This document shows positions 2,936 to 34,092 of a stretch of 43,102 nucleotides of DNA, piece after piece (position 1 is the stretch's first letter; each line of letters opens with the position of its first letter). The translations under genes were made by a program, and so were the position numbers. The notes beneath the pieces were generated by a model. It saw only the letters and a program-made list of their open reading frames with translations, did not search any database and had not been told where the DNA came from. Source of the DNA: Candidatus Kaiserbacteria bacterium (GTDB lineage: Bacteria > Patescibacteriota > Minisyncoccia > Phycocordibacterales > Phycocordibacteraceae); assembly GCA_023264445.1 (NCBI GenBank), contig JAHFMN010000004.1, forward strand, positions 1 to 43,102. The letters are read 5' to 3'.

Positions 2936-3529
2936 TCATTTTTCTAATAAATCAAGATGGAGGAAGGAACGACGGTGGATAAGCGATGGTCCGTATTTTT
3001 TCAGCATGTCGTAATGCGCCTCGGTGCCATACCCTTTATGCTTTTCAAAACCGTATTCGGGAAATTGTTTTGAGAGACGCGTCATCAAGCGGTCGCGCAT
3101 CACCTTAGCGGCGATAGAGGCAAGCGCGATGATGGGTACGGCTTCGTCTCCTCCTATGATGGTTTGCTGGTCATATTCGCGTGGCGCTTTCAAAAGGCCA
3201 TCGAGATAAATAGAGATGCCCCTCGGTTCAGGTGCAAGGAAGCGGACGCCGCGTGCGATTGCCGAGGCGACTGCACGAGACAATCCCCACTCATCAATCC
3301 GTTGCGCACTGGTTGAGCGCACGCAAAACCGGACATCGCCCTGCCGCGCTCGCGCGCGCAAAAGCCCGAACATTTTTTCACGAGCCAAGGGCGACATCTG
3401 TTTTGAATCCACAAGATTCGGAAACTCTCGAGTGATAGCGAAGCGCTCCGGCACGGCGACGATGCCGATAGCCACCGGGCCTGCCAGAGGCCCCCGCCCC
3501 GCTTCATCCACTCCCAGCATGAACTTCAT
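2936..3529 (-). CDS. rnhB: Ribonuclease HII
   Basis: GVDEAGRGPLAGP, LVDSKQ, LDG, IALASIAAKVMRD, KHKGYGT, IHRRSF. Start MKFMLG, with TATACT 6 nt upstream. Confidence 0.97.
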   Translation of the reverse strand: MKFMLGVDEAGRGPLAGPVAIGIVAVPERFAITREFPNLVDSKQMSPLAREKMFGLLRARARQGDVRFCVRSTSAQRIDEWGLSRAVASAIARGVRFLAPEPRGISIYLDGLLKAPREYDQQTIIGGDEAVPIIALASIAAKVMRDRLMTRLSKQFPEYGFEKHKGYGTEAHYDMLKKYGPSLIHRRSFLHLDLLEK

Positions 3530-3603
3530 GAGGAGAGTATATACCGCGTTAGATACGGGCAATCGGCTGAGCTATCAAAAATAGAACGAATTATCTAACG
3601 GGG

Positions 3604-3609
3604 TATACT
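3604..3609 (+). promoter_or_regulatory. -10 box TATACT of dnaE, divergent from the rnhB promoter
   Basis: gggTATACTgggatctaATG: 8 nt to the start codon and no Shine-Dalgarno. Confidence 0.55.
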
Positions 3610-3617
3610 GGGATCTA

Positions 3618-6600
3618 ATGAAGGGCCGATTTATTCACCTACATACGCACAGCCACTACTCCTTTCTTGAAGCGTTGCCAAAAGTAGACGAACTCGTCGA
3701 AAAGGCAAAGAAGGAAGGTATGGACGCGCTCGCGCTCACGGACGCCGGTAACATGCACGGCGCCATAGAATTTTATAAAGCGGCGACGGCAGCGGGCATA
3801 AAACCGATTCTCGGCGTCGATGCCTACCTCGCTCCGCGCTCACGGCACGAGAAAGATCGGACGATGGATATCAAACGCTCGCGCATCGTGCTGTTGGCGG
3901 AAGATACGGAGGGGTATAAAAATCTGCTCGCGCTCGTGACAAAATCGTGGACCGAAGGATTCTTCGAGCGCCCGCGCATCGACAAGGAACTGCTTCGTGC
4001 GCACAGCCGCGGTGTCATTGCGATTATTCCGTCATTTGCTGGAGACGTCGCACAGGCACTGCGCGCCGGCGACCGCAATGGCGCGGCGGCTGCGCTGGCG
4101 GAGTTCAAGAATATATTTCTTGCCGAGAACGTCTTCCTCGAAATAACGCATCACCCGAAAGTTGCCGGGCATGAGGCACTAATGCAAGAGATTATTGCGC
4201 TTGCACGCGAAAGCGACACCTCGCTCGTTGCAGCACACGACGTGTATTACTTGGATCCAGACGATCGCGAAGCGACCGAAATCATGCGCCGCATTCAGCA
4301 TGGTGCGCATGGCAAGAACGAAGAGGAAGATTTTTCGTTCATCGGAGAAACGACGGCAGAAAAACTCTTCGCCGACACGCCTGATGCACTTGATAATTCT
4401 CGTCGTATCGCAGACCGATGCACTGTCTCATTTGAGCTCGGAAAATGGACGTTCCCTACCGTCCCCGTCTCACCAGGGTTCAAGAATCATGATGACGAGC
4501 TGCGGACGAAGGCGTATGCCGGCATCAAAGAGCGCGGTCTTGAGGAAACGAAGGAGGTCACTGACCGTATTGATTACGAACTGACTATCATCATCAACAA
4601 GGGCTTCGCCGTGTACTATCTCATCGTCGCCGACCTCTTGGCATTTGCACGGCGTGAGGGAATCCTCACCACTACTCGCGGCTCTGCAGCGGGAAGTCTC
4701 GTCGCCTACCTCACCGGCATCACGAACGTAAATCCACTTTTCTATAAATTGCCTTTTGAACGATTCCTCAATCCAGAACGCCCGAAGGCTCCGGATATTG
4801 ATATGGACATTGCCGACGATCGACGGGACGACATGATCGCCTATACGAAACAGAAATACGGCGAGGATCATGTCGCCCAGATCGGCACCTTCGGTACGAT
4901 GATGGCGCGAGCAGCAGTGCGAGACGTCGCGCGGGCGCTTGGCCACTCATACAATACCGGCGACCGTATCGCAAAGCTTATTCCGATGGGTTCGCAAGGA
5001 TTCCCCATGACCATCGACCGCGCGCTCGAACTTGAGCCGGACCTGAAGACGCTCTATGACGAAGACGACGAATCGCGCGAGGTTATCGATCTTGCAAAAC
5101 GTATCGAGGGTTGCGTACGGCATGTGGGCGTCCACGCCGCTGGCGTGGTCGTCGCACCGACACCGCTTATCGAATGGACACCGATCCAGCCGGATCCCAA
5201 AGGCACCGGCAAGCTCATCACGCAGTACGACATGTATTCCATCACCGATGAATACGGCGGCGTCGGGCTCCTGAAATTCGATTTCCTCGGTATTAAAAAT
5301 CTTGCCATCCTCGCTGACGCCGTTGCACGCGTAAAAGAAACTCGAGACATTACTATTGATATTGAAAATGTTCCTATTGACGATGCAAAGACGTATCAGA
5401 TGCTCGCGCGCGGCGAGACCGAAGGCACCTTCCAGCTAAATGGTTCCGGTATGACGCGCTGGCTGAAAGAGCTGCGCCCGACGACCATCCACGATATCAA
5501 TGCGATGGTCGCGCTCTACCGCCCAGGGCCGATGGAGACTATCCCGCAATATGTCGAGCGCAAACATAATGCAAAACTCATCCGGTACGTCGACGAACGC
5601 ATGAAAGACTATCTTGATTTCTCCTATGGCCTTCTTGTCTATCAGGATGATGTGCTCCTCACCGCTATAACGCTTGGCGGGTATTCGTGGCTTGAGGCGG
5701 ATGCGCTTCGCAAAGCGATGGGCAAGAAAATCCCGAAAGTCATGCAGGCGGAAAAAGAAAAACTGCTTCAGGGCTTTATGGAATACGGGAAGCTCCCGAA
5801 GCATACGGCGGAGAAACTCTGGTCTTTGATCGAGCCGTTTGCTGCGTACGGATTCAACAAGGCGCATGCGGCAAGCTACGGCAAGGTCGCCTATCAGACC
5901 GCCTACATGAAGGCGAATTATCCGGTTGAATACCTTTCTGCCCTTCTTACCGCCGATTCGGGCGACACGGAACAGATTGCTATATTCGTTGCAGAAGCGA
6001 AGCGCATGAACGTCAAGGTACTCCCTCCAGACGTAAACGAGAGCGGGAGCGATTTCACCCCATTAGAAGTCCGCGCCGAGGACGGCGCGATTCTAACGGG
6101 GCAAGCCGTCACTGGAAAAATGAACGCCATACGATTCGGATTGTCATCTATCAAGAACTTCGGCGACGGTATTTCTGAAGCAATTATCGCCGAACGGAAA
6201 GCGCGCGGAGCGTTTACTTCCCTTTCTGATTTCCTTTCTCGCATTGGTTCAAAAAATCTCAACCGCAAATCGCTTGAGTCGCTGGTGAAGTGTGGCGCGC
6301 TTGACTCTCTGATTCCCGAAAATGGCCGCGGATCGCTTCTAGAACGTATTGAAACGCTGCTGGCCTTCCACCGCGAAGCGACTGCTGTCGCACCGCAAGA
6401 TTCGCTTTTCGGTGCATCTATCGCGCCACCGCCTCTCGTGCTCCCTGAAGGAAAACCGGTCTCGCTCTTCGACAAGCTTTCATGGGAGAAAGAATTGCTC
6501 GGCATTTACGTAAGCGGCCATCCGCTTGATGGGCATGCAGCGTTGATGGCGAAGGTGAAGCTCTCGCTTGCAAAGATTAAGGAAGAGCCGCAATCGGGCA

Positions 6601-10230: not shown

Positions 10231-11163
10231 TTACGGCGCAATTGCCGAAACCACCATCGTGCAGTTCTTCCATTCCTCGGGGAAAAGCCAGATACGACGA
10301 AATTCATCGGACACGGCCGGAGACTTGTAGTCTGCCGGCCAGATCGTCTCGACGATGTACGCCCGCTGAGTCGCGGAGAGGGCCTTGATGGCAACACCGC
10401 TTGCAAGACGTATCGTACCGAGATCCTCCGCGACGGTGAGCATCACCGGGTCGAGAAGACGTATGAACACGACGCTGTCCCCTGCGGGCGGTAACTTGTA
10501 CAGCTCGGGCCCAAGCGTTCGCGATACGGCGTCTGTCTTGTAGGCATCCGCGCTTCTCGTGTTCTTACCGTCGAGCTCGATGGGACGTCGCGCGGCACTG
10601 CTATCGCGATTTGCGGCGGCGGTAATCAAGACTTCCGCCCGTGCCCATAAGTCCGCAGGGATGTTCTTCTGCGGATAGCTCCTGGTCATGAACGTTCGTT
10701 CGTTTGGACAGCTGCCACTTGCGACCGGCGTTGGCGTCGGATTCGGCGTGATGATACTGCTCCAGTTGTTGCAGACGTCCGGAAGGACGACAACGTACGT
10801 TTTGTCCTCCCAGACCACCTGCCACCGCTCTGCCGGTGCGGCATATTCCATGCCACGCGTCGGCGAACCGAAAGCAACCACCACGTCTTGATGAACGACA
10901 CTCCTCTTTGAAATCATCGCCGAGAAGCGGTCCCCAACGAAGATACGGGTCTTCTGTCCCGGCTGCTCCGTTGCCTTTACGAGGAGATCAACGACCGGCT
11001 TCGGGAAGCCGAGCTTCGTAAACGCGCTCTCACGCGTCTTCATTGCTTCCGCACGCGAGGTCGCATAGGGATCAGCACCAAAGTGCTGCCATTTGAATTC
11101 GGCGTGAGCCGAATTCGCTAGCACCGCAATTGCGAGCGCCAGCATTGCCACGATGAACTTCAT
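10231..11163 (-). CDS. Secreted hypothetical protein
   Basis: 310-aa ORF with a classic signal peptide (MKFIVAMLALAIAVLANSAHA-E) and an AAGGAG RBS. No family recognised. Confidence 0.8.
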   Translation of the reverse strand: MKFIVAMLALAIAVLANSAHAEFKWQHFGADPYATSRAEAMKTRESAFTKLGFPKPVVDLLVKATEQPGQKTRIFVGDRFSAMISKRSVVHQDVVVAFGSPTRGMEYAAPAERWQVVWEDKTYVVVLPDVCNNWSSIITPNPTPTPVASGSCPNERTFMTRSYPQKNIPADLWARAEVLITAAANRDSSAARRPIELDGKNTRSADAYKTDAVSRTLGPELYKLPPAGDSVVFIRLLDPVMLTVAEDLGTIRLASGVAIKALSATQRAYIVETIWPADYKSPAVSDEFRRIWLFPEEWKNCTMVVSAIAP

Positions 11164-11254: not shown

Positions 11255-11917
11255 TTAGCTGGAAATTGCGTGGCTTTCAGCAAAGTCCGCTACGACAACG
11301 AAACGATCCGTCTTCGCACCAAAGGAATCGCACGTTGAGAGCGTCAGCACGCGGCCAGAGACCGCAAGCGGAATGCCTGCATCGCTCGCCGCGCTCTCCT
11401 TCGTCACGCTCCGCACGCGATAGGTGTAGACGATGTCAGATGAAGAAACGGCGATGACGTCTCCGACAACGAGCTTCTGGATGCCGTTGAATGTCTTGTA
11501 CGCCTGATTCTTCACCACGGGTAGATAGCTTGAATGGCCGAAGAGGACGACATTTCCATCCTCGCCAAGCTTCGCAGAGGTCGGATAACGCACTGCGCCC
11601 TTGAGCAAGGCCTGATCAAGTCCCTCGATTTCGGTCGTCACCGGATTCGCGATAATTGCCTGCAAGTTGATCGCAGAAATCTCTATCTTGAGCGGCAACT
11701 CGCTCACCGGCCGCGTAGCGACTGTCGTCGTGATCGCGACTGCGGCCGCGGGTGCAGGCGATGCGGGTGAAGCGTCTGGCAAGAGATCAAGACGCGCAAG
11801 TATAAGAACGCTCACCAGAAACACAAACGCAAAAATGCCGAGGAAGTTCCACTTCCGTGCATATGCTTGTTTACCGGCTCGAATGAGCCGTACAATCGCG
11901 TCGATACCGTTTTCCAT
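11255..11917 (-). CDS. Sortase family transpeptidase
   Basis: N-terminal TM anchor and catalytic triad motifs LFGHSS (His), LTLSTC (Cys) and DRFVV (Arg). Confidence 0.92.
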   Translation of the reverse strand: MENGIDAIVRLIRAGKQAYARKWNFLGIFAFVFLVSVLILARLDLLPDASPASPAPAAAVAITTTVATRPVSELPLKIEISAINLQAIIANPVTTEIEGLDQALLKGAVRYPTSAKLGEDGNVVLFGHSSYLPVVKNQAYKTFNGIQKLVVGDVIAVSSSDIVYTYRVRSVTKESAASDAGIPLAVSGRVLTLSTCDSFGAKTDRFVVVADFAESHAISS

Positions 11918-11936: not shown

Positions 11937-12011
11937 CACTATTCTGTCAATAATGTCAAGGGTTGAGTGAAATCACGAAAACTTGACATAAAAACTCACT
12001 CGTGTTATGTA
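11937..12011. promoter_or_regulatory. Divergent promoter region with back-to-back TTGACA -35 boxes
   Basis: TTGACA at 11983-11988 (+) and tgtcaa at 11945-11950 and 11954-11959 (-). atgtcaag...cttgacat forms an inverted repeat. The -10 boxes are imperfect. Confidence 0.45.
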
Positions 12012-12762
12012 TGTACCCATGCATGAATCGAGTCATTCACTCGTCCTAAACGCGCTCGCGGGAGCGGGGTTTGTCGCGCTTGTCGGCGGAGGCATGTGGC
12101 TCGCCGTCTATACGACACGCTACGTTCCAGATGTAGCGGCGCATCTTGGTTCGGCCGCTGTGTACCTCGGATCCGTATTCACTCCCGCTTCGGAGCAATC
12201 TTCCCTTTCAATCGTTCCGGCGCCTGTAGCGTCAACGACAATTTCGCTTGGCGGCACTTCTACAAGCGGCACTACGACAACTCTCCCATCGACTCCATCG
12301 AAGCCAGTCGCAACGACACCGGGCAATAAGACTAACGCCACTATTCAAATCGGCAACGCAACTACGACCCCTACCCTTTCGGGGCTTCCCGATCTGGTCG
12401 TAACCATCAATGTGATTGGCTACCTTGCAACCACGTCTGCGGAATCGTTTGTCGCAAGCACGACCGTTCCGTCTGGCGGCCGCCCTGCGGTCAACTTCAC
12501 CATACGAAATGCCGGCTCAAATGTAAGCGGCTCGTGGCGCTGGAGTGCATCCATCCCGACGCAAACGTCGTATATCTATATGTCGCAGCCACAGCAATCA
12601 CTTGCTCCGGGCGACAGTATCGACTACACGCTTGGCTTTGACCAGGCAAATCCGGGGGCTAATCAGCCGGTCTCTATTTCGGCAAACTTTGATCGCGCGG
12701 TTTCAGAATCAAATACCAACAACAATAACGCTTCGGCTACCTTTCTGATTATCGGCTCATAA
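12007..12762 (+). CDS. Membrane-anchored Ser/Thr-rich protein with a C-terminal CARDB-like Ig domain
   Basis: N-terminal TM helix, T/S/P linker, LPDLVVT...VNFTIRNAGS...VSESNTNNN (CARDB pattern). The start may be 12019. Confidence 0.8.
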   Translation: MYVPMHESSHSLVLNALAGAGFVALVGGGMWLAVYTTRYVPDVAAHLGSAAVYLGSVFTPASEQSSLSIVPAPVASTTISLGGTSTSGTTTTLPSTPSKPVATTPGNKTNATIQIGNATTTPTLSGLPDLVVTINVIGYLATTSAESFVASTTVPSGGRPAVNFTIRNAGSNVSGSWRWSASIPTQTSYIYMSQPQQSLAPGDSIDYTLGFDQANPGANQPVSISANFDRAVSESNTNNNNASATFLIIGS

Positions 12763-21380: not shown

Positions 21381-23291
21381 TTAGAATTCTTGGAAGAATG
21401 GCTCGACGTTCACGGTCACCTGCCGCACGATTGCCGCGCCGCCGCCGGTTGGGGTGCAAGAGATGCTGTAGGTCGCCTGGCCAGTCACGATAATCGTTGC
21501 CGATCCAGATATGCTTGACTGCGAGAAACCGTTTGGACCAGTAACGTTGCAGCTACTCATCAGAACCGAGCTCCAGGAGAGAATGCTCGAACCGCCCGAC
21601 ACCGTCACGCGCGGCGGTTCCGCACCGATGTTCACCTCCGGCTGAATCACCGTTACGGTTACTTGCGCCGGTGCCGAGGTACCCGACGCATTTGAACAGG
21701 TTATTTGGTACGTTGAGTCCTGCAAGAGCACACCGGTCGAGACGCCGCCCGGAGGATTGGTTGTCGCACCGCCCGTCGAGAATCCTCCAGCCGACGTGCA
21801 GGAAGTCGCATTGGTAGATGACCAGAAGAGCTTGGTCGACTGGCCTTGATTTATGGGGTTCGGGCTTGCAGAGAGTGTCACAGTCGGCGGACAGGTGGAA
21901 TTGGATGGGACAGCAGCGGAGCAAGAACTGTCGCATTGAACCGTGCCGGTATTCGTCTGGCCGCATGAATTTGCTGCGGACGAACAAACAGCTCCTTGGT
22001 TCGCGACGCATAGCACCGTGACCACCTTCCATGCTCCGCAGTTGTTGCCCTCGTTAGACTCATCAATAGAACCGGCCCATGAACTGTTGTTGTCAGCGCA
22101 CGCGCGCACGTTGTAGGTACCGGCTGCTGTAAAGGTGTATGAGCCAGAAAGACCGGTGGAAGCGCCGGAGCTAAGGGAGGAGACGGTGTTGGCATTTACC
22201 ATCGCAATCGTCACCGTCTTGGCGCTGTTAGCAACCTGGAAGATGTTCGGGAAATTCGAGGCCGAACCATCACCGATATTGGAGACGGTTGCTGAGAAAG
22301 ACTCGCTTTGTCCGGCCACAACAGACGTGGGAGAAATAGTAGTATCCCCTGCCGTGAGATCAGCGAGCGAAACCGGGATCTGAACGCAGCCGGTTCCGTC
22401 TGCGCTCGGCTCCGTTCCTGATGGACAGGTAACCACGTGACTGATGGTCGCCGTGTTAGATGTTCCTCCGGGACCGGTACAAGTATTGCTCCAGGTGTAG
22501 GTCCCTGGATAGGTGGGTGTCGCTGGTAGTGAGCCAGAGGTTCCTGCTGCCCATGGATTGGTAACGAGACCGTCCGGACGCACTCTCGTTACCGTGCAGG
22601 ATGTTGCGTTCGTCGAGCTCCATGAGACGGTAAACGTTGTGCCGGAATCGGCGGTGCTAACTGATTGACTGATTGAGGCAGTCGGAGCCACACAACTCGA
22701 ATCGGACGGGGGTGTCGAAGAACATGAACCATCGCACTGGATAGTGCCGTTCGATTGCGTCTGGCCGCAAGAATTTGGTGAGGATGCACACGCGGAACCG
22801 TATCCGGCCGCACATGCTGGACTCACGTACACTGAGCACGTCTCCATACCAATGACGTCACTGCCACCCAACGAATACACCGATATTACTTTGTTTTGTG
22901 TACCAGAAGAACCATACACGTTCGTCTCGTAGGTGCGGTAGTACGGCTCGGCATCAATGTGGTATATACCGGCATTGATGCCCTGTAGGGAATACGGGTT
23001 CGTAACAGTCCACGTAACGGTATCACCGACTTTTGGATTTGTTGGCGAAACTGCACAGATCGCAGAGCACATGCCCGTACCCGCATTATGTTCGTAGCCG
23101 GATTCGCAGGAGGCTGGGACTATTACACCGCCTTCCGCCCCCCGAGGAGAAAGCGACACAAAGCCTACTTCAGAAGAATGTACCGGCGTATGGGCCAGCA
23201 TCAGGGACTGCAAGGAGCCGATAACGCCAAGAAAAAGCAGGAGCGACCCGAGAGATACCGCCAGTTGCCGAGTTCGCAGGCGAACCTTCAT
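21381..23291 (-). CDS. Large secreted/surface protein with a CARDB-like domain, two six-Cys repeats and several beta-rich Ig-like modules
   Basis: Start MKVRLRTRQLAVSLG (TM/signal). ADLTAG...SATVSNIG...IDESNEGNNC is CARDB-like. Repeats of the form C..N.G..C.S..NSCGQT..GT.QCD.SCS...P.(D/N)S.C. Confidence 0.85.
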   Translation of the reverse strand: MKVRLRTRQLAVSLGSLLLFLGVIGSLQSLMLAHTPVHSSEVGFVSLSPRGAEGGVIVPASCESGYEHNAGTGMCSAICAVSPTNPKVGDTVTWTVTNPYSLQGINAGIYHIDAEPYYRTYETNVYGSSGTQNKVISVYSLGGSDVIGMETCSVYVSPACAAGYGSACASSPNSCGQTQSNGTIQCDGSCSSTPPSDSSCVAPTASISQSVSTADSGTTFTVSWSSTNATSCTVTRVRPDGLVTNPWAAGTSGSLPATPTYPGTYTWSNTCTGPGGTSNTATISHVVTCPSGTEPSADGTGCVQIPVSLADLTAGDTTISPTSVVAGQSESFSATVSNIGDGSASNFPNIFQVANSAKTVTIAMVNANTVSSLSSGASTGLSGSYTFTAAGTYNVRACADNNSSWAGSIDESNEGNNCGAWKVVTVLCVANQGAVCSSAANSCGQTNTGTVQCDSSCSAAVPSNSTCPPTVTLSASPNPINQGQSTKLFWSSTNATSCTSAGGFSTGGATTNPPGGVSTGVLLQDSTYQITCSNASGTSAPAQVTVTVIQPEVNIGAEPPRVTVSGGSSILSWSSVLMSSCNVTGPNGFSQSSISGSATIIVTGQATYSISCTPTGGGAAIVRQVTVNVEPFFQEF

Positions 23292-24252: not shown

Positions 24253-24786
24253 ATGCGAAAAATCATCCAGCTTTTCCTCGTGTGCGCGGTTATGACTTCC
24301 GTCACAACCGCAATCCCGACCCTCGCTGTAGAACCGGCCGCAAAGGCGCCCGAAAAGGCTGCTGCTGCGAAAAAGCCGGCGAAGAAACCGGCGGCCAAAG
24401 CAGTGAAGAAAAAGCCGACAGTGAAAAAGGATGCGACCCTTGGAAAAACGACCACACCCAAGAGGGCGCCGGCGGGGCCCGAGCCGATTCGAACAGTTCG
24501 TCTAGGCTCGACGGCGACCGGCCAGCTTTGGGTATACGATGGTCCGACCCTTTTCGATGCGGGAGGCACCACCTGTCTGCTTCGTGTGGAGCGGCCACAG
24601 CCGATCGTCGGATGGGAATTTCTCCAAAGGATGGCGCTCCACATGGACGTTCCGGAGTTTGCCCAGTTCGCGCGATCAATCCTGCGACAAGAGGCAGACA
24701 GCAAACGCCCGCTTTCGCCAACCGAGCAGATAGCTCTGCGCGATCTGCTCGAGCTCGGATGTCGTGGGACTCCTAACTTCGCGTGA
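24253..24786 (+). CDS. Secreted protein with an Ala/Lys/Pro-rich (histone H1-like) segment
   Basis: Signal peptide, AAKKPAKKPAAKAVKKKP, strong RBS, own promoter and terminator. Confidence 0.75.
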   Translation: MRKIIQLFLVCAVMTSVTTAIPTLAVEPAAKAPEKAAAAKKPAKKPAAKAVKKKPTVKKDATLGKTTTPKRAPAGPEPIRTVRLGSTATGQLWVYDGPTLFDAGGTTCLLRVERPQPIVGWEFLQRMALHMDVPEFAQFARSILRQEADSKRPLSPTEQIALRDLLELGCRGTPNFA

Positions 24787-24891: not shown

Positions 24892-25743
24892 ATGCCTGCT
24901 GTGCGTTTGCTGGCAATATTCATCCTCTTCGCCTTCTCCGGCAATGAGGCCCTCGCACAACAACTCCCCATATGGGAACAAGTATGGATTCCAACAAAAG
25001 AAAAGGAATTGTTCGGTAGGGAAAGCGATGTTCGACTTGACGCGGCGCTCTACCAACCGCAAGGAACCGCCCCATACCCACTTGTCATTTGGAACCACGG
25101 ATCGACCGGTGGTGATGCGTCTTTCGCGAAGGTATCAGCGCGTGCACCGCACATCGCTACCTTCTTCCTCTCCCGAGGTTTCGCGATGCTCGTGCCGATG
25201 CGAAGAGGCCGAGGCTCCTCAGGAGGTTATGACGGAGAAACGGATGGGGGTTCCTGCGATTTCGGGCGGTCAATGGCCGGCATCGAGCGGGCTATGGCAG
25301 ACATTGATGCCGCGCTTGCATACGCGAAAACGAGAGAGAACCTCGATACCTCCCGCCTCGTCATTGGAGGGATTTCTCGAGGTGGACTGCTCTCAGTCGC
25401 ATACACAGCCCGGCGCCCGGAACTCCGTGTCCTCGCAGTAGTGAATTTTTCTGGGGGCTGGACGGGAGATCGCTGTGCAAGCGACACAAACGGCGCGCTG
25501 TTGCAGAGTGGTGGTGCGAAGAATGTGCCGATGATCTTCCTCTACGGGGGGCGCGATGCAACTTACTCGGACGAATCCATCAGGCGGTACGCTGCGGGCT
25601 TCGAGAAATCTGGGGGAATCTTAGAATTCCAGTTGATTAAGAACGAGCTTCGTAACGGCCACTTCTTGTCTTCTGAACCGAAACTCTGGTTACCGCTCAT
25701 CACTCCCTTTTTCGAAAAGCTCGGTTATCCACGAAAGTTCTGA
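24892..25743 (+). CDS. Secreted alpha/beta hydrolase (dienelactone hydrolase / S9 peptidase-like)
   Basis: Signal peptide, VIWNHGSTG, MRRGRGSSGG, nucleophile elbow GISRGG, GGRD and C-terminal GH. AAGGAGGT RBS. Confidence 0.88.
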   Translation: MPAVRLLAIFILFAFSGNEALAQQLPIWEQVWIPTKEKELFGRESDVRLDAALYQPQGTAPYPLVIWNHGSTGGDASFAKVSARAPHIATFFLSRGFAMLVPMRRGRGSSGGYDGETDGGSCDFGRSMAGIERAMADIDAALAYAKTRENLDTSRLVIGGISRGGLLSVAYTARRPELRVLAVVNFSGGWTGDRCASDTNGALLQSGGAKNVPMIFLYGGRDATYSDESIRRYAAGFEKSGGILEFQLIKNELRNGHFLSSEPKLWLPLITPFFEKLGYPRKF

Positions 25744-26916: not shown

Positions 26917-27231
26917 TCACGCGAAACTGCAAGAGCTGCAAGAGCTGCAAGAGGCACCACCAGGACCAGCGGTACCGACGGAGCAACTAGAGCAACTGGT
27001 GCAACTGGTGCAACCTCCGGCGCAAGAGCCGGTTCCGCAGCCACCAGGAACATCGGCATGTGCGGTATTCTGTGTAAACAAATCTGCAGGCGAGGCACCA
27101 TTTCCTGAACCCCAGATTTTTGGAATGGTAGCAAAAAAGATGGCAAAAAAGCCGAATATGGCCGCAAAGGACCCCGACAGTCCCCGCAAGAATTTTCTTC
27201 CTTTACCGAAGGCGTACCGAGCCACAACCAT
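26917..27231 (-). CDS. Putative RiPP (azol(in)e-type) precursor: basic N-terminus, hydrophobic helix, AHA-D site, 45-aa Cys/Ser/Thr/Gly core
   Basis: MVVARYAFGKGRK...TAHA|DVPGGCGTGSCAGGCTSCTSCSSCSVGTAGPGGASCSSCSSCSFA. TG-G-TATACT 7 nt upstream; divergent from YcaO. Confidence 0.8.
   Translation of the reverse strand: MVVARYAFGKGRKFLRGLSGSFAAIFGFFAIFFATIPKIWGSGNGASPADLFTQNTAHADVPGGCGTGSCAGGCTSCTSCSSCSVGTAGPGGASCSSCSSCSFA
26927..27016. repeat. 9-bp tandem repeats encoding the Cys-x-x periodicity of the precursor core
   Basis: (ctgcaagag)x3 at 26927-26953; gagcaacta/gagcaactg/gtgcaactg/gtgcaacct at 26981-27016. Confidence 0.85.
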
Positions 27232-27313
27232 GCATGGAAGTATACCAAGCCACATTAAGTAGCGCGAAGGGAGTGTGGACAAGAAGTGGCATGGCGCTGG
27301 TATCATCAGACCC
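27232..27313. promoter_or_regulatory. Divergent promoter between the precursor and YcaO-1
   Basis: TGG-TATACT (-, 27239-27247) and TGG-TATCAT (+, 27298-27306), each 7 nt before an ATG. Confidence 0.6.
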
Positions 27314-28755: not shown

Positions 28756-29484
28756 ATGAACGCCCTTTCGAGATTCATTGCACGCATTCATGCCTCTATA
28801 CGAGGAGTGGACATGGCGCCACACGGAGTACCTCTACGAGAAAAAGAAGTTCCTCGAGGTCTGCATAAAGAATATCCGCGCATGCCGCGCATTGAGCTTC
28901 CTGCACCAGAAACATTAACTCTTCCACTCAGTGAAGCACTGCACAACCGCGCATCATTCTCCGTGTGCGAAGATAGTCGACAGTTCTCATCGGGAGAATT
29001 AGGTTCGCTACTCGGAAATGCACTTGGCATGCGCACCGCTATGCGACGGCAGTACCCTTCGGGTGGAGGCCTTTTCCCGATCGAGACATATCTCATCGGG
29101 ACAGTGCTTGAAAGGTATCCATCCGGGGTATTTCACTATCATCCCAAGGCCCATGCACTCGAATTTTTATGGGAAACTTCCCCTTCATTTACTATGGCGG
29201 AAATCATCCGGGCTGGTGACACACCGTTCGCACCTATTCTTGTCATATTCACCAGCGTATGGAGCCGCTCCAGCGTAAAATACGCCGAGCTTGCATACGC
29301 GCATGGTCTCATTGAGGCCGGTCATATGGCCGAAAACATATTGCTCGCGGCAACTGCTCTCGGAATACATGCTCGGCCATTGGCCGGATTCTACGACGAA
29401 GCAGTCAGTACGCTGCTTGATCTTCCGAAGGATATAGAACAACCGGTATACGGCGTCCTTCTCTGTCCGTCGGCAATGCCTTGA
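28756..29484 (+). CDS. SagB/ThcOx-type FMN-dependent azoline dehydrogenase 1
   Basis: RRQYPSGGGLFPIETY, GVFHYHP..HAL, the Lys-Tyr pair in SVKYAE, IEAGHMAENI. Confidence 0.92.
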   Translation: MNALSRFIARIHASIRGVDMAPHGVPLREKEVPRGLHKEYPRMPRIELPAPETLTLPLSEALHNRASFSVCEDSRQFSSGELGSLLGNALGMRTAMRRQYPSGGGLFPIETYLIGTVLERYPSGVFHYHPKAHALEFLWETSPSFTMAEIIRAGDTPFAPILVIFTSVWSRSSVKYAELAYAHGLIEAGHMAENILLAATALGIHARPLAGFYDEAVSTLLDLPKDIEQPVYGVLLCPSAMP

Positions 29485-30275
29485 TGCTAGAATGCGTACC
29501 GTACATGGTTCCACGTCTTTCATATCTTATCTGTACCACTCCCCGATCAGGTAGCAATCTTCTCTGCACGACTCTCTGGCAAACCGGGATTGCGGGACGG
29601 CCACAGGAATACTTCATGCCAGGGCTCCGCGATGAATTCATCCGGTATGCCCAACTCGGTGTGAGTGAGCATCCGGATTATGTACGCGCCGTTATCCGCG
29701 CCTCGACCACTCCAAACGGTATCTTCGGAACAAGTGTACATGCTTTCCAAACTGCACTCGTCATGAAGCGGATACAGCATGCAGAAGGCAAGGAGTTTTT
29801 TTCATTTCGAGAAGCAGTAGAAACTGCATTTCCGAACATCAAGTACATCTTTTTAACACGAGTAGACAAGGTCGCACAGGCCGTTTCCTATTATCGGGCA
29901 GTCATGACCGGAGAATGGCGACGCTTCAGCGATGAACACATTCCCGAGTCTAATAAAACTATCAAGATGGACCACTATGGCATTAAAAAATGCCTTGAGT
30001 TGCTCGAACAATCGGATGCTTATTGGGAAAAATTCTTTGAGGAACACGAACTGTCCCCGTTGCGGATTACTTTTGAAGATCTCACACGGAAGTATGGAAA
30101 GACCGTTCAGAATATTCTCTCCTATCTTGAGCTTCCTGCCGTCCCTATACCCCCTCCGGCAACAAAGAAAATTTCAGACGAACGTTCCAAATCCTGGGAA
30201 GAAGAATTTATACAACTTGAAAAAAAGAACCCCATACACACCGAGCCGACTAACTACGCATGGGCACCGTTTTAA
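29484..30275 (+). CDS. Stf0-family PAPS-dependent sulfotransferase
   Basis: YLICTTPRSGSNLLC (5'-PSB loop), GRPQEYF, FLTRVDKVAQAVSY (3'-PB). ATG overlaps the SagB-1 TGA; alternative start 29505. Confidence 0.9.
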   Translation: MLECVPYMVPRLSYLICTTPRSGSNLLCTTLWQTGIAGRPQEYFMPGLRDEFIRYAQLGVSEHPDYVRAVIRASTTPNGIFGTSVHAFQTALVMKRIQHAEGKEFFSFREAVETAFPNIKYIFLTRVDKVAQAVSYYRAVMTGEWRRFSDEHIPESNKTIKMDHYGIKKCLELLEQSDAYWEKFFEEHELSPLRITFEDLTRKYGKTVQNILSYLELPAVPIPPPATKKISDERSKSWEEEFIQLEKKNPIHTEPTNYAWAPF

Positions 30276-30283
30276 TGGAGTAC

Positions 30284-31030
30284 TTATTTTGAAAGCATAA
30301 GCGCATACACGAGTGATTCCTGTGTGCCATCAATATCAAGAAGAGAATGGAGGGCTTCATCCTGCGTTCCTCCCATTCCGGTAACACCGACACCACACGG
30401 AGCTGCCGAAAGATACATCCCTTGCCCAATGTGCCCAGCTTCGAGCAATACGTAGCGGTACGCTCGCTCACCATATTTCATGGCCGTGCGGTTAAACACC
30501 GCAGTAACGAGTACCGCCATGGAACAATCCTTTGCCCACGGATAGGTGAACATCTGCAAAATGTCTTGGCTTGAAAAAGCACGGACGCGCAATACATTGA
30601 GTGCGTGTTCTTTGACATTGAAATGATATACACCCGGCGCGATTCCATTTTCTTTCTTAAGAGATAGCACATATACTTCAAGTGGAAACCGCATACCCCC
30701 AGAAGGTTGCGCTCGAAGTTTTACTCCACTTGTATGCCGCACGGTATCTTGAAGCCCGCAAGAATATTTCAGTATTGCTGAAAGATCGGCAATGGAAATC
30801 CCATGTTCATGTGCCCCATTCACTGATTTTCTATTGGCGACGATGTCAAAAAAATTTGTGGGTGGAGGCGCCGTTTTTGTGAGCGGTATTGTGCGGACCC
30901 CCGCATAGGATTTGTAATAAATTGTCTTCCATTCTTTCGGCCAATCTTCAGTTCGCTGGAATAAGCGAGAGTCAGTTCCTGCCGCATGATCGGCACTTCT
31001 TCTGTGGTATTGGTGAAAAAAAAATGGCAT
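30284..31030 (-). CDS. SagB/ThcOx-type FMN-dependent azoline dehydrogenase 2
   Basis: LRAQPSGGMRFPLEVY, GVYHFNVKEHAL, AMKYGERAYRY, LEAGHIGQ. Start MPFFFH chosen; 31084 is possible. Confidence 0.92.
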   Translation of the reverse strand: MPFFFHQYHRRSADHAAGTDSRLFQRTEDWPKEWKTIYYKSYAGVRTIPLTKTAPPPTNFFDIVANRKSVNGAHEHGISIADLSAILKYSCGLQDTVRHTSGVKLRAQPSGGMRFPLEVYVLSLKKENGIAPGVYHFNVKEHALNVLRVRAFSSQDILQMFTYPWAKDCSMAVLVTAVFNRTAMKYGERAYRYVLLEAGHIGQGMYLSAAPCGVGVTGMGGTQDEALHSLLDIDGTQESLVYALMLSK

Positions 31031-31046
31031 GGAAATGTGTCGGTTG

Positions 31047-32627
31047 CTACGGGAACGGGTGTGGAATGGGATTATACGCATCAATTGGTACCGCAGTGTA
31101 GCCTAGTTTCCCTGGAACCTCCCGCAAACGAACGCAATCAAGAAGAGCATCGCTCTCTCGTAAGTACAGAGGCATGAGGGCTGGAATAATAACTTTCACG
31201 ACATGGTAATTGAGATCCCCAAGAACGGGATTCGAAGCCTCATGACAAAACACCTCATATGCTCGACCGGATTCTTTTTCCATGCGAATGAACTCGCTCA
31301 AGACGCGCGTGAGTGCGGCTTTGTGATTACTTGGTATTGAAGGGAACCCGCTTGCCCACTGCTCGAATGAAATCTTTTCTCCTGAGAGGAAAAAAAGAAT
31401 TTTATTAGCTATTTTTCCCGATCTCCACAAGTTTACTCGCTCGTCTTTTCCGATGTTCCTGTCAGAAAATGCCGCGCGTTCCTCATCGAAAACAAACAGA
31501 GGGAGTTCCTTATACGGCGAACTTAGAAAGGCAATATGCTCAAGAAGAGCTCCTTCAAGAACATGATGAGGGTCCGGGTGGCACTTCCCTGTTACACTTA
31601 TAGATATTCTCCCGTCTGTAAGCGGGGTGCGAATAAGACATGTCGCTGATGGCACACGTATATCCGATGTCGTATCAAGAAAATATATCTCGTATCCACG
31701 ATCCAAAAGCGAACCATATATCTCAAGGAAACGCTGAGAAAGTTTCCCAGAGTTGTGCTGATCAATGCAAATCTGCCGGGGCGAAAGCCGATTAAGCCAG
31801 TAAATGAGGAATCCGTCGCGTTCAATGAGTTCACATATACCCGACAGAGCGGCTTCAGTTAAAGAAAATCCACCACCCGCACCATTTGTCGTCCTCGGCG
31901 AGAAGATATACGGATCAGGGCCATATGTTCCGCTGTATGGTAGCCCCCATTGAACATGCTGGAGCGGCAACGATATTTTCTTCCCCGTACTCAATGACTG
32001 CCCTTCAATGCAGTGGACGGGCGTATTTTTTATCTCCTTTTTTTTAAGTACTCCACTGGTCAGACCGTTCGGAACATATTTCTTCTGCCAATCAAAAAAA
32101 CGTGGAATTTCATGCAGGAGTGCGGGTGGAATTTTTGTATCCCCAAATGTTCTCCTGATAATCTTATTTTTCTGATTAAAAAATGGGGTAGCGAGGACAT
32201 GCCGCTCGAGAAGTTCACCTATGGACTTAGAGAGTGCTTCGGTAAATGAATGATACGAGGCTCCGCCTCCATACAGCGGGGTGTGTTGTGAATCTCGTAT
32301 ATGTTCTTCATTCCCATTGATACGAATATGGTGAGTCTTCGGCACTGTGTTGCGTATTAACGATGGAGTTGGCGTCATTCCATTCGATATTTTTTTCTTC
32401 GCTAAGTACACCAATACATCGCCAAATCGAGACCGCTCTATTTCTCGAGAAACGCCGACAGGAGTCGGGTCCGGCAGCTCCACTTTTCCAAAAAATCTTG
32501 CGGAAATTCGGGAACGGATGCGGGACCATGTTTCAACATTTCCATAACGACAATTCCCTTCGTTGCGCAGTTCATCGAACACCTTCCACGGTATATAGGG
32601 TTGATGAGTGAACTCCTCCTCGTACAT
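31047..32627 (-). CDS. YcaO-family protein 2 (azoline-forming cyclodehydratase type)
   Basis: KSIGELLERH, TTNGAGGG...SGICELIERDG, EGALLEH, C-terminal NPIPHPFP (PxPxP). Start MYEEEF after TG-T-TATATT and AAAGGT. Confidence 0.92.
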   Translation of the reverse strand: MYEEEFTHQPYIPWKVFDELRNEGNCRYGNVETWSRIRSRISARFFGKVELPDPTPVGVSREIERSRFGDVLVYLAKKKISNGMTPTPSLIRNTVPKTHHIRINGNEEHIRDSQHTPLYGGGASYHSFTEALSKSIGELLERHVLATPFFNQKNKIIRRTFGDTKIPPALLHEIPRFFDWQKKYVPNGLTSGVLKKKEIKNTPVHCIEGQSLSTGKKISLPLQHVQWGLPYSGTYGPDPYIFSPRTTNGAGGGFSLTEAALSGICELIERDGFLIYWLNRLSPRQICIDQHNSGKLSQRFLEIYGSLLDRGYEIYFLDTTSDIRVPSATCLIRTPLTDGRISISVTGKCHPDPHHVLEGALLEHIAFLSSPYKELPLFVFDEERAAFSDRNIGKDERVNLWRSGKIANKILFFLSGEKISFEQWASGFPSIPSNHKAALTRVLSEFIRMEKESGRAYEVFCHEASNPVLGDLNYHVVKVIIPALMPLYLRESDALLDCVRLREVPGKLGYTAVPIDAYNPIPHPFP

Positions 32628-32727
32628 ACCTTTATTGATGATAATATAACACGACCAGTCTTTTGAGACTTTAGGGGGTCCCTCGGGGCACAATCTCGCC
32701 CCGTCCGACCGATTGATGTTTCCTTAG

Positions 32728-34092
32728 TTAATTGTTTGAAAGGAAGTCGATATTCGGCCGTATGACGTTCTTCACCGTGTTCATTACCTGGTTCGCGTAG
32801 GTTCTGCCTACGCGAGTGTTTGCGCCGCCCCAGCCCGCATAATATCGGGCTGCGGCGTTGAACTCCGCCGTATACCCTCCCGCGCTCGCGCCATTGTCTG
32901 CAAGGAGGAACGACATCGCCATGATGGCGTCCTTCGGGTCCCACGGATTGGCAGTGGGCACCCTGTTTGCTGATGCAACTCGGTCTGCATAGAGCTTCCA
33001 CGTGGAAGGAATGAACTGCGCAGGTCCCATCGCGCCGCCCCAGCCGCCCGCGCTCGCAATCGGGCACGAAACGACCTGACGATGCGGATCAAATCCTAGA
33101 AGCGGTGCTAGCGCGAGAAACGGTGGAACATCGCGGGTTGGAGCCATCACTTTGGCAAAGGCCGTTCCGGTATTCTTGCCCACGCCCGCGCCCGTCGCAT
33201 CATTGGTCAGATAGCACTGACCGACATTTTCGCCGAGATTTGATTCTTGAGTAAGGATGGCGAGCGCAAGCGCAGGGTCGACGCCGGTTATGCGCTCCGC
33301 CTGCTGTGCATACTCGAGCGCGGTGCCGAAGGAGATTGCGGCCGCATCGCGCAGCGGGAAGAGCGCTGCGCGTATGGCTGCGGCTTTTGCCTGCCGATCT
33401 GCAAGTATTTTCTTATATTCTGTTTCTTGATTCGTCGTGATGGTAAGCAGCTGCTGCTTCTGGGTCTTATTGCTCGCGATCTGTTTCTGCTGCAACTCGA
33501 CCACGTATTTCGCATCCGTCGTCTGATTCTGCTTTGCCGCCAGATCGGCTTTCTCGATCTCGGTCTGCGCCTTCGTATCGCGAATATCGGCAAAGAGGTT
33601 CTGCAGGCCGGTCTTAATAGATACGAATGCATCGAGATCGGCAAAGAGCGAGGAGATGTCCTCGTTTGAAAGCGCGACGGCGATGATGGAGGAATTATCC
33701 ATCTGGTCTTCCTGGCGCAGGATGGAAGCAAGCGATTCTTTCCCGCGCTCGATGCGGGCTTCGAGTTGCCCGATAACCACATTCTTTTTCGCTATCTGTG
33801 CAGCAAGCTGCTTGATGACGATATTTTTCGCATCAATTTGCGCTTGAGCGGCTTTGATCTGGGCATTGAGGAGCGTGACATCGCCCTGCAGGGTATTTTT
33901 CTTCGCCTGGGTATCCTTGATGATCTGCTGCTGCACGGCGATTTCCTTCTGCAGCTCGTCATATTGCGCCTGAAGTGCCGCGCGCTCTTCGGGCGTCAGA
34001 TTTTGAGCGTGTGTGGAATGCGTGTATACGGCGAAGCCGCCGCATATGACCGCGAGAAATAGGACAAAGGCGAAAACTGCCCTCTGAAACAT
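32728..34092 (-). CDS. Secreted coiled-coil protein with a C-terminal lytic transglycosylase/lysozyme-like domain (PcsB/CwlO-like architecture)
   Basis: Signal peptide, long heptad region, ILTQESNLG (catalytic Glu), AMGPAQFIPSTW, NPWDPKDAI. Confidence 0.88.
   Translation of the reverse strand: MFQRAVFAFVLFLAVICGGFAVYTHSTHAQNLTPEERAALQAQYDELQKEIAVQQQIIKDTQAKKNTLQGDVTLLNAQIKAAQAQIDAKNIVIKQLAAQIAKKNVVIGQLEARIERGKESLASILRQEDQMDNSSIIAVALSNEDISSLFADLDAFVSIKTGLQNLFADIRDTKAQTEIEKADLAAKQNQTTDAKYVVELQQKQIASNKTQKQQLLTITTNQETEYKKILADRQAKAAAIRAALFPLRDAAAISFGTALEYAQQAERITGVDPALALAILTQESNLGENVGQCYLTNDATGAGVGKNTGTAFAKVMAPTRDVPPFLALAPLLGFDPHRQVVSCPIASAGGWGGAMGPAQFIPSTWKLYADRVASANRVPTANPWDPKDAIMAMSFLLADNGASAGGYTAEFNAAARYYAGWGGANTRVGRTYANQVMNTVKNVIRPNIDFLSNN

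Follow-up and report, generated by a model that had tools for sequence, protein, structure and literature searches.

Peptides modified by YcaO enzymes, among them the linear azol(in)e-containing peptides or thiazole/oxazole-modified microcins (LAP/TOMM), normally arise from a precursor with a soluble leader, with the help of a partner that bears a RiPP recognition element (RRE; RiPP, peptide synthesized on the ribosome and modified after translation) and of dedicated export and trimming machinery. In the archetypal systems, microcin B17 (McbA/McbBCD) and streptolysin S (SagA/SagBCD), a short soluble leader precedes a Gly/Ser/Cys-rich core, on which a YcaO cyclodehydratase and a flavin mononucleotide (FMN)-dependent dehydrogenase act; both systems also have an E1-like C protein, a dedicated ATP-binding cassette (ABC) exporter, and a protease (TldD/E for microcin B17, a CPBP-type enzyme for streptolysin S). 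A leader of ~59 amino acids (aa) in cinnamycin-type precursors, which give lanthipeptides and not YcaO products, is said to end in Ala-x-Ala, where a cut by type I signal peptidase was reportedly proposed by Widdick et al. (2003). Here we describe a 104-aa precursor and its gene neighborhood in a stretch of 43,102 nucleotides (nt) from a Candidatus Kaiserbacteria bacterium (contig JAHFMN010000004.1; hereafter the window, meaning the whole stretch analyzed). The gene probably encodes the precursor of a LAP/TOMM-type RiPP belonging to a large family of the Candidate Phyla Radiation (CPR), and its leader would double as a signal-anchor.

Sharrar et al. (2020, mBio, PMC7298704) described a YcaO-nitroreductase-peptidase cluster with an 84-aa precursor from a single Microgenomates genome. 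They also reported another 110 LAP clusters from 93 CPR genomes, and in 89 of these clusters a nitroreductase adjoins YcaO. The cluster in the window shares with these the phylum-level group, the enzyme pair, and a similar-sized precursor beside YcaO, and it is very likely one of that population. In contrast to the present work, the text of that report is silent on signal peptides, transmembrane (TM) segments, and secretion and defines no precursor family (PMC7298704). In addition, a cluster-encoded peptidase was proposed there to remove the leader, while no peptidase is conserved in the cassette of our precursor family.

In bufferins, which are RiPPs, modification comes before Sec export and the cut by signal peptidase (PMC11626156), and Sec-type leaders, termed highly unusual in RiPPs, have been shown experimentally only for them (PMC11626156, PMC12452194). 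The bufferins and oxazolins, products of oxidative enzymes that depend on multinuclear non-heme iron (MNIO; DUF692), resemble the present family, as we read it, in using a general-secretion signal as leader, in cytoplasmic Cys modification before export, and in needing no dedicated transporter or protease (PMC11626156, PMC12452194). However, an MNIO enzyme with a DUF2063 partner acts on them, whereas YcaO and SagB are found here, and bufferins have canonical signal peptides cut at the predicted site and small folded products, whereas our family has a remote A-x-A site and a disordered core. No MNIO (DUF692) or DUF2063-type domain was found in the window or in the homologous loci; the likeness to bufferins is functional only.

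Searches of the literature for YcaO precursors with Sec or TM leaders and for TOMM precursors of the CPR turned up the above survey of LAP clusters in CPR genomes and the bufferin precedent but nothing else, and we found no description of the leader architecture. CPR clusters of YcaO and nitroreductase were already known. New here are the export-type tripartite leader of a LAP precursor family, its partner-less minimal cyclodehydratase, and a conserved, probably extracytoplasmic module. Microcin B17 and streptolysin S differ from this family, in which leaders of 53-60 aa carry a TM-length helix, cores are Asp-rich and anionic, and no C protein, transporter, or protease was found.

A conserved gene beside YcaO

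The precursor of the window reads MVVARYAFGKGRKFLRGLSGSFAAIFGFFAIFFATIPKIWGSGNGASPADLFTQNTAHA up to and including AHA (59 aa), followed by DVPGGCGTGSCAGGCTSCTSCSSCSVGTAGPGGASCSSCSSCSFA (45 aa). Every count in the preliminary description of this DNA, from the 104-aa open reading frame (ORF) and the 59-aa leader ending in AHA to the 9 Cys, 12 Ser, and 4 Thr of the 45-aa core, is correct. The homologous loci decide its start codon: an upstream ATG at 27315, which would give 132 aa, was dropped in favor of the ATG at 27231, because a stop codon lies 0-7 codons 5' of the homologous Met in L002, L016, L010, L014, and L004 and because no conservation is seen 5' of this Met. Leader codons differ between loci mostly at third positions; the leaders of L015 and L001, for example, show 7, 3, and 22 differences at codon positions 1, 2, and 3, and of the 31 residues identical between them, 17 show a synonymous change of codon. 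This third-position excess argues that the frame is coding and is under selection at the protein level. The precursor ORF is a real, conserved gene, and its architecture, seen again in 159 inspected relatives, goes far beyond what chance would give.

The precursor and YcaO1, the cyclodehydratase gene next to it, are transcribed divergently from an 82-bp intergenic region (27232-27313), in which each start codon is preceded by an extended -10-like box (Table 1). A TAnnnT box stands 6-9 nt upstream of the precursor start in ~14 of 18 homologous loci that were compared, several loci share a TGTCCACA/TGTGGACA motif in the corresponding position, and a TGGACA hexamer lies at 27276-27281 on the YcaO1 side. 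A generic sigma-70 promoter scan did not flag either box; they emerged when the loci were compared. As a pattern in the sequence, these boxes close to the ATGs support both the start codon and expression, and the two transcripts are probably leaderless or near-leaderless.

YcaO1, followed by an alignment of YcaO sequences, served to search genomes and metagenomes and yielded 81 loci, and a leader profile was seeded from three syntenic leaders and then iterated. With this profile a homologous small ORF was recognized in 20 distinct loci, each time directly upstream of and divergent from YcaO; these are all but two (L008 and L021) of the loci that have a YcaO at least 36% identical and usable upstream DNA. 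L030, where YcaO is 29% identical, has next to it a copy that diverges still further. The leader profile alone retrieved 23 clusters from 5.8 billion proteins, none of them named or carrying a Pfam domain. Conversely, all five leader-profile proteins that were looked up adjoin a YcaO1-type gene, with a nitroreductase in the four of these loci whose contig continues past YcaO, and a homolog of the membrane-anchored tetratricopeptide repeat (TPR) protein of the window lies 3' of the precursor in the leader-profile loci (L082-L088). The preliminary description had proposed a precursor, and had reckoned with the case that it would not be conserved beside YcaO; the pairing was found in both directions. 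In each of the loci examined, the precursor stands divergent from a YcaO-SagB pair and has the gene of a membrane-anchored TPR protein 3' of it. An exhaustive profile search of 1.84 billion representatives gave 249 clusters (50% identity) at E ≤0.001, 73 of which were at ≤1e-10.

The family shows the hallmarks of RiPP precursors, namely a conserved leader, a hypervariable core bearing Cys, Ser, and Thr, and tandem copies. The tandem pairs, found in L083/L084 and L085/L086 (second copies at 7349-7588 of L083 and 4627-4983 of L085), have similar leaders and diverged cores. The gene caller of the source had missed the second copy in L083/L084. Likewise, the window precursor is missing as a called gene from the large protein collection, for which both starts were checked, and this is why a single-sequence homology search with the 104-aa protein returned zero matches, its own copy included. 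The family came to light by synteny first and by the leader profile afterwards.

Neither Pfam nor NCBIfam matched the window precursor or has a model for the precursor family. The only curated family with any match is Pfam PF25184 (YxzE-like putative bacteriocin), to which 4 of 24 members aligned along almost all of its 65 positions, a span that starts at the helix and takes in the Cys-rich tail (best, P0020, E 3.7e-6). All of these matches stay at or below 28.3 bits, compared with a gathering threshold of 40 bits, and the window member gave none; they may reflect a TM helix plus low-complexity composition. The yxzE gene of Bacillus subtilis, which belongs to the sigma-W regulon, is an uncharacterized single gene with a long 3' untranslated region, and its BAGEL flag rests on a nearby ABC-transporter homolog and not on YcaO.

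The named YcaO relatives come from Parcubacteria-type CPR (such as Kaiserbacteria, Paceibacterota, Minisyncoccia, and Magasanikiibacteriota) and from one Saccharibacteria metagenome-assembled genome. In L083 (2793-12079) and L084 the cassette sits between rpsJ (S10) and rplC (L3) in an otherwise conserved S10 operon, and this insertion defines the limits of the cassette, which in L083 contains SagB, YcaO, two precursors, two TPR proteins, a Cys-rich protein, and a 158-aa ORF. In L087 (813-2284 and 3812-5350) YcaO is split into ORFs of 289 and 201 aa, by a frameshift or an assembly error, and an HTTM-domain membrane protein adjoins the cassette. More distant CPR YcaO-SagB loci (L026-L029, ~3000-3750, minus strand) have a lipoprotein-like gene of ~150 aa upstream of YcaO in place of the leader-family precursor.

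Leader, junction, and core

The figures of this section refer to 159 family members that were inspected, and the junction counts to the 151 of them with a recognizable motif. The leader begins with an n-region whose net charge is positive in 159 of 159 members (median +3; +5 in the window). The uncharged stretch that follows has a median of 20 aa (21 in the window), and the strictly hydrophobic run, without any D, E, K, R, N, Q, H, or P, one of 18 aa (20 in the window). The helix itself comprises 18-20 residues with a Kyte-Doolittle hydropathy of 1.7-2.8, and holds an invariant Gly inside a G-F-F-like signature. The window helix averages 2.0 on the Kyte-Doolittle scale, taken over 19 aa, and its free energy summed on the Hessa scale is about -0.2 kcal/mol. 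AlphaFold2 with the family alignment predicted one helix at residues 5-35, with a predicted local distance difference test (pLDDT) score of 76-90 at residues 11-30, and left the remainder disordered. Because the n-region is positive and the flank after the helix is acidic, the predicted insertion is N-in/C-out, with the core outside; this topology is based on hydropathy, charge bias, and context. We lean toward a role of the helix in driving membrane insertion and export of the tail.

Between helix and core lie a spacer and a near-invariant junction of the form [G/N/D][V/I/T]-A-[H/Y]-A/D-[A/V]-P, where the slash before D marks the boundary. Of the 151 members, 140 have Ala and nine have Val at position -3, while 148 have Ala and three have Gly at position -1; the combination of A or V at -3 with A at -1 is seen in 98%. 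Bulky residues occupy position -2, which varies (H/Y/Q/L/F/N/R/K, mainly His or Tyr). This pattern, small at -3 and -1 and bulky at -2, has in its sequence the signature of signal peptidase I. Conservation also reaches positions -4, +1, +2, and +3, with Asp at +1 in 145 of 151 (96%) and Pro at +3 in 110 of 151 (73%), and the junction is thus stricter than a signal peptidase site requires; it may instead, or in addition, be a recognition element for the enzyme. Just 5' of the junction, many members carry an F-x-x-x-[branched] element that resembles the SagA-type leader motif, a likeness that serves as a lead only.

A canonical signal peptide has an h-region of ~7-15 residues and a c-region of 3-7 residues (PMC6579943). 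The precursor leader agrees with this plan in its positive n-region and in its small residues at -3 and -1, but its h-region, although strongly hydrophobic, is longer than the norm and of TM or signal-anchor length, and the distance from the helix end to the junction is 8-31 residues in the family (median 20; 23 in the window) instead of 3-7. The preliminary description had spoken of a signal/TM-type leader, and this stands as far as the family-wide positive n-region, the helix of ~20 aa, and the -3/-1 rule are concerned, while the leader appears from its sequence not to be a canonical cleavable Sec signal peptide. It had also pointed to similar H-A or A-H-A sites in other secreted proteins of the window. 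The classical signal peptides of the proteins at 10231-11163 (MKFIVAMLALAIAVLANSAHA, before EF) and 32728-34092 (ending GGFAVYTHSTHA, before QN) do end in xHA, but their c-regions have 5-8 residues against the 22-23-residue spacer of the precursor. Because the helix has TM length and the A-x-A lies so far beyond it, cleavage by signal peptidase I is doubtful, and we regard release at AHA/D by this enzyme as possible but rather less than probable.

The same geometry brings in the main rival to our favored reading, namely that the modified peptide is never cleaved and remains a permanent N-in/C-out anchor that displays an azole-bearing polyanionic tail on the surface, beside the TPR and large Cys-rich proteins. 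The V-A-H-A-D-A-P element would then be a recognition element for a partner-less YcaO and not a protease site. Such tethering would suit a helix of TM-anchor length with an A-x-A too distant for canonical signal peptidase I and a junction conserved over seven positions; without an RRE or an E1-like partner, a core-adjacent motif could be read directly by YcaO, and the proteins encoded in the same operon are membrane-anchored as well. The variation at the junction, however, mirrors signal peptidase specificity, strict for small residues at -3 and -1 and lax for bulky ones at -2, and a spacer that varies between 8 and 31 residues resembles a linker rather than a structured display stalk. We consider a permanently tethered peptide unlikely, although it deserves to be kept in mind.

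The family core is hypervariable, disordered, and polyanionic, rich in Gly (31%), Ser (17%), Asp (15%), and Cys (11%), with 9% Ala and with Lys, Arg, and His nearly absent. In the window, the core of 45 aa is longer than the family median of 36 aa, its nine Cys compare with a family range of 0-12 and a median of 3, and its net charge is about -1 (one Asp, no Glu) against a median of -5. Seven of the 159 members lack core Cys altogether, in 61 there are at most two, and neither a conserved Cys column nor a conserved spacing was found. The preliminary description had likened the core, 56% of it heterocyclizable, to those of microcin B17 and SagA. This high fraction (25/45, 55.6%) is an outlier, third of 159 for Cys plus Ser plus Thr where the family median is 31%, and it is due to two 9-bp tandem arrays that encode CSS and CTS repeats. 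Slippage of 9-bp units is plausible as the engine of core diversification.

It has to be asked whether the precursor is modified at all, as it might be secreted as a metal-binding or disulfide-bonded peptide rich in Cys and Asp, akin to a metallothionein or ferredoxin, while YcaO and SagB act on another substrate. Such a peptide would account for the CxxC-type spacing in the window member, for the anionic Asp/Cys/Gly composition of the family, and for the DsbA-like and rhodanese genes in at least seven loci, and bufferins are exported Cys-containing RiPPs that can be metallophores. Against this, Cys number (0-12, median 3) and spacing are not conserved, which excludes a defined Fe-S or metal-cluster fold and disfavors the metallothionein/ferredoxin alternative that the preliminary description had allowed for. 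Moreover, the YcaO/SagB pairing is strict and reciprocal, the window holds no other candidate substrate, and DsbA has a more obvious client in the large Cys-rich protein that the operon encodes. We therefore regard an unmodified peptide as very improbable. Metal or cation binding by the modified product is possible and is compatible with the favored reading, a modified precursor with a signal-anchor leader.

Modification enzymes and the membrane-anchored operon

The start of YcaO1 is the ATG at 27314 and not the GTG at 27275, as the gene call of the collection (P0160) has 479 aa and this Met is conserved. YcaO1 scores 194 bits against TIGR03604 (TOMM_cyclo_SagD), under the cut-off of 219 bits. 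Its AlphaFold2 model (pLDDT 91.7) gave LynD as the best Foldseek match (E 2e-22, TM-score 0.69), then MusD and TruD, and then MjYcaO and McbD. Azoline-forming cyclodehydratases carry a Pro-rich C-terminal motif, PxPxP. The C-terminal P475-H476-P477-F478 of YcaO1, invariant or nearly so in 57 homologs, agrees with this Pro-rich terminus, and by their sequences the enzymes look competent. SagB lies 3' of YcaO in 16 loci, and the precursor is very probably the substrate of the adjacent YcaO/SagB.

The first ~105 aa of YcaO1 form an extra alpha/beta module, in the predicted order E-H-H-E-H-H-E-E-E, unlike a canonical RRE. This part gave no informative match among Pfam or PDB sequences, and the fold search with the whole chain was dominated by the YcaO domain. 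By Pfam and NCBIfam there is no E1-like or Ocin-ThiF-like partner in the window or in the conserved cassette, and YcaO1 is too short to contain a fused E1-like domain.

In the commonest cassette one strand encodes YcaO, SagB, and a phosphoribosyltransferase (PRTase) plus pyrroloquinoline quinone (PQQ)-like beta-propeller protein, and the other encodes the precursor, an anchored TPR protein (365-400 aa), a DsbA-like thioredoxin, a rhodanese, a second anchored TPR protein (~270 aa), and the large Cys-rich protein. The products of the first strand (with Stf0 in the window) have no TM segment, while each of the six products of the second strand carries a single N-terminal TM segment, with a modest N-in charge bias. 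The thioredoxin (CPYC in L002) and the rhodanese, both membrane-anchored, lie between the two TPR genes in at least seven loci (3230-4425 in L002; also in L007, L011, L016, L025, and L082, among others). DsbA-type oxidoreductases function outside the cytoplasm. The partner proteins co-transcribed with the precursor are, as predicted from their sequences, probably membrane-anchored and extracytoplasmic, and co-transcription with such a module supports an extracytoplasmic fate of the precursor tail, although the DsbA-like protein may just as well have the large Cys-rich protein as its client.

The 370-aa TPR protein of the window has one N-terminal TM segment followed by TPR repeats, and profile searches (PDB sequences, NCBIfam) gave generic TPR matches only, at residues 48-128, which leaves ~250 residues without an assignment. 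Its close coupling to the precursor, with a gap of 14 nt in the window and overlapping stop and start codons in L001, bears on a further alternative, in which the leader helix is a cytoplasmic recognition or tethering element that makes modification possible, held at the inner face of the membrane or in a hydrophobic groove of YcaO or of the TPR protein, and the product leaves the cell along an unlinked path or is retained. TPR domains are peptide binders, specific contacts are indicated by the invariant Gly and by the G-F-F signature, and the weak charge bias at the TPR anchor makes its topology uncertain. On the other hand, the n-region, positive in every member, and the acidic flank after the helix point to N-in/C-out with the core outside, the DsbA-like oxidoreductase of the operon works only outside the cytoplasm, and a 20-residue segment with a hydropathy above 2 would not remain soluble. 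We hold a cytoplasmic role of the helix to be improbable.

The preliminary description had suggested that the leader may replace a dedicated transporter and protease; neither the window genes nor the conserved cassette yielded an ABC transporter, a C39 peptidase, or a CPBP protease. The DsbA-like and rhodanese genes are missing from the window cassette, with no homolog in the rest of the 43 kb.

Several features of the window and of single loci may be added. In the place of the DsbA-like and rhodanese genes, the plus strand of the window encodes two secreted proteins, an alpha/beta-hydrolase (24892-25743) and one rich in Lys, Ala, and Pro (24253-24786). The hydrolase and the Stf0-type sulfotransferase were dropped as components of the family, since they are absent from every other locus fetched; the slot of Stf0 is taken by the PRTase/beta-propeller protein in seven other loci. 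In L001 (5141-6784) and six other loci, this is a cytoplasmic fusion of ~540 aa after SagB, with an N-terminal phosphoribosyltransferase-like part and a C-terminal PQQ/BamB-like beta-propeller, and it is a candidate tailoring or substrate-binding component. We speculate that O-sulfation by Stf0 could supply the negative charge given elsewhere by Asp, as the window core is Ser-rich and has one Asp against a family median of ~6 acidic residues. The second enzyme pair, YcaO2 and SagB2, may act on the same Cys/Ser-rich core or on another substrate; the leader model and a scan by composition turned up no second precursor for it in the window. Among CPR loci, SagB2 most resembles the L026-L030 type.

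The large Cys-rich proteins form a CARDB/fn3-like family (21381-23291 on the minus strand of the window, 9530-10816 in L083, 7367-8803 in L085, and 1378-2397 in L002) with a common motif, SSEV.F....GG..IVPASC, after the TM segment. The N-terminus of the L083 member was considered as a relative of the leader (leader profile E 0.9) and was judged to show TM-helix similarity only. A sortase gene (11255-11917, minus strand) lies ~15 kb from the cluster, and CARDB-domain proteins are encoded at 12007-12762 and 21381-23291; the sortase and the CARDB proteins are consistent with a monoderm envelope carrying anchored surface proteins.

Table 1. Features of the precursor locus, with positions in the window.
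Feature	Position	Strand	Remarks
Large Cys-rich secreted or anchored CARDB protein, 636 aa	21381-23291	minus	Relatives at distal end of precursor operon in other loci
Second membrane-anchored TPR protein, 269 aa	23323-24132	minus	In 11/22 loci
Membrane-anchored TPR protein, 370 aa	25790-26902	minus	Begins 14 nt after precursor stop; conserved directly 3' of precursor
Precursor gene, 104 aa plus stop	26917-27231	minus	Tripartite leader and hypervariable core; stop codon 26917-26919
Core, aa 60-104, 45 aa	26920-27054	minus	9 Cys, 12 Ser, 4 Thr, 10 Gly, 4 Ala
9-bp tandem array, 3.0 copies, 100% identical	26927-26953		Encodes C-terminal CSSCSSCS
9-bp tandem array, 3.9 copies, 88% matches	26980-27014		Encodes CTSCTSCSSCS
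Junction A-H-A/D-V-P, aa 57-62	27046-27063	minus	Family logo given in the text
Spacer, aa 38-56, KIWGSGNGASPADLFTQNT	27064-27120	minus	Length varies in family; F-x-x-x-[I/V/T]-like element just 5' of junction
Hydrophobic helix, aa 17-37, GLSGSFAAIFGFFAIFFATIP	27121-27183	minus	Family-invariant Gly27; from hydropathy, alignment, AlphaFold2
n-region, aa 1-16, MVVARYAFGKGRKFLR	27184-27231	minus	Net charge +5
Extended -10-like box TGGTATACT	27239-27247	minus	Ends 7 nt upstream of precursor ATG; no Shine-Dalgarno
Extended -10-like box TGGTATCAT	27298-27306	plus	Ends 7 nt upstream of YcaO1 ATG; mirror image of TGGTATACT; no Shine-Dalgarno
YcaO1 cyclodehydratase, 479 aa	27314-28753	plus	PF02624 E 3.7e-42; TIGR03604 E 3.2e-57
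SagB1 FMN-dependent peptide dehydrogenase	28756-29484	plus	TIGR03605 E 8.8e-31; PF00881
Stf0-type sulfotransferase, candidate tailoring enzyme	29481-30275	plus	PF09037 E 7e-44; follows SagB1
SagB2, divergent dehydrogenase	30284-31084	minus	32% identical to SagB1; TIGR03605 E 7.8e-36
YcaO2, divergent cyclodehydratase	31047-32693	minus	26% identical to YcaO1; C-terminus PHPFP

A proposed route to the surface

Modification, export, cleavage, and product function are what we infer for this precursor. The preliminary description had raised a question of timing, as a cytoplasmic YcaO must act before translocation. The 104-aa protein would leave the ribosome before co-translational targeting, for which it is too short, could be completed; export would then be post-translational and would leave time for the cytoplasmic YcaO and SagB, the same answer as the bufferin precedent gives. 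In the cytoplasm, YcaO1 with ATP would cyclodehydrate Cys, Ser, and Thr and SagB1 would oxidize the rings to azoles, while in the window genome YcaO2/SagB2 and Stf0 may add further modifications. The signal-anchor-type helix would then insert with its N-terminus inside, and the general Sec/YidC machinery would translocate the modified tail. Outside, the tail would be tethered, or freed by cleavage after the small-x-small site AHA/D, and the anchored TPR proteins would act there, joined in other genomes by the DsbA-like oxidoreductase, the rhodanese, and the large Cys-rich surface protein.

Several observations weigh against this reading. The A-x-A, at a median of 20 residues past a helix of TM length, has the wrong geometry for signal peptidase I, and the junction, with its His or Tyr at -2, Asp at +1, and Pro at +3, is conserved beyond what a signal peptidase would call for, which suggests recognition by something more specific. 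Similarly, the Gly-Phe-Phe pattern in the helix exceeds the needs of a generic h-region. Neither an E1-like/Ocin-ThiF partner nor a recognizable RRE was found in the window, the cassette, or the N-terminus of YcaO1. Cys is absent from 7 of the 159 members, and 61 hold at most two.

In its widest form the proposal is tentative: the CPR may possess a widespread and so far unrecognized class of YcaO-modified peptides built for general secretion, in which a signal-anchor leader with a remote A-x-A couples heterocyclization by a partner-less, RRE-less YcaO to Sec/YidC export and then to release or display at the surface, where the polyanionic, azole-bearing peptides would work with a dedicated extracytoplasmic module (two anchored TPR proteins, a DsbA-like protein, a rhodanese, and a large Cys-rich protein). 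If this is true, the logic of the Sec-exported RiPP, so far demonstrated for MNIO-modified bufferins alone, would extend to the YcaO superfamily, and a minimal cyclodehydratase would have a new mode of substrate recognition. The definition of the family by its net-positive n-region, G-F-F helix, V-A-H-A-D-A-P junction, and Gly/Ser/Asp/Cys core is useful in practice, because gene callers often miss such ORFs. For the genome-reduced symbionts of the CPR, the arrangement would be a cheap route by which modified peptides are brought onto or outside the cell. The function of such peptides could be the capture of metals or cations or contact with the host cell in episymbiosis, which would make them effectors, secreted or on the surface, and not classical antibiotics.

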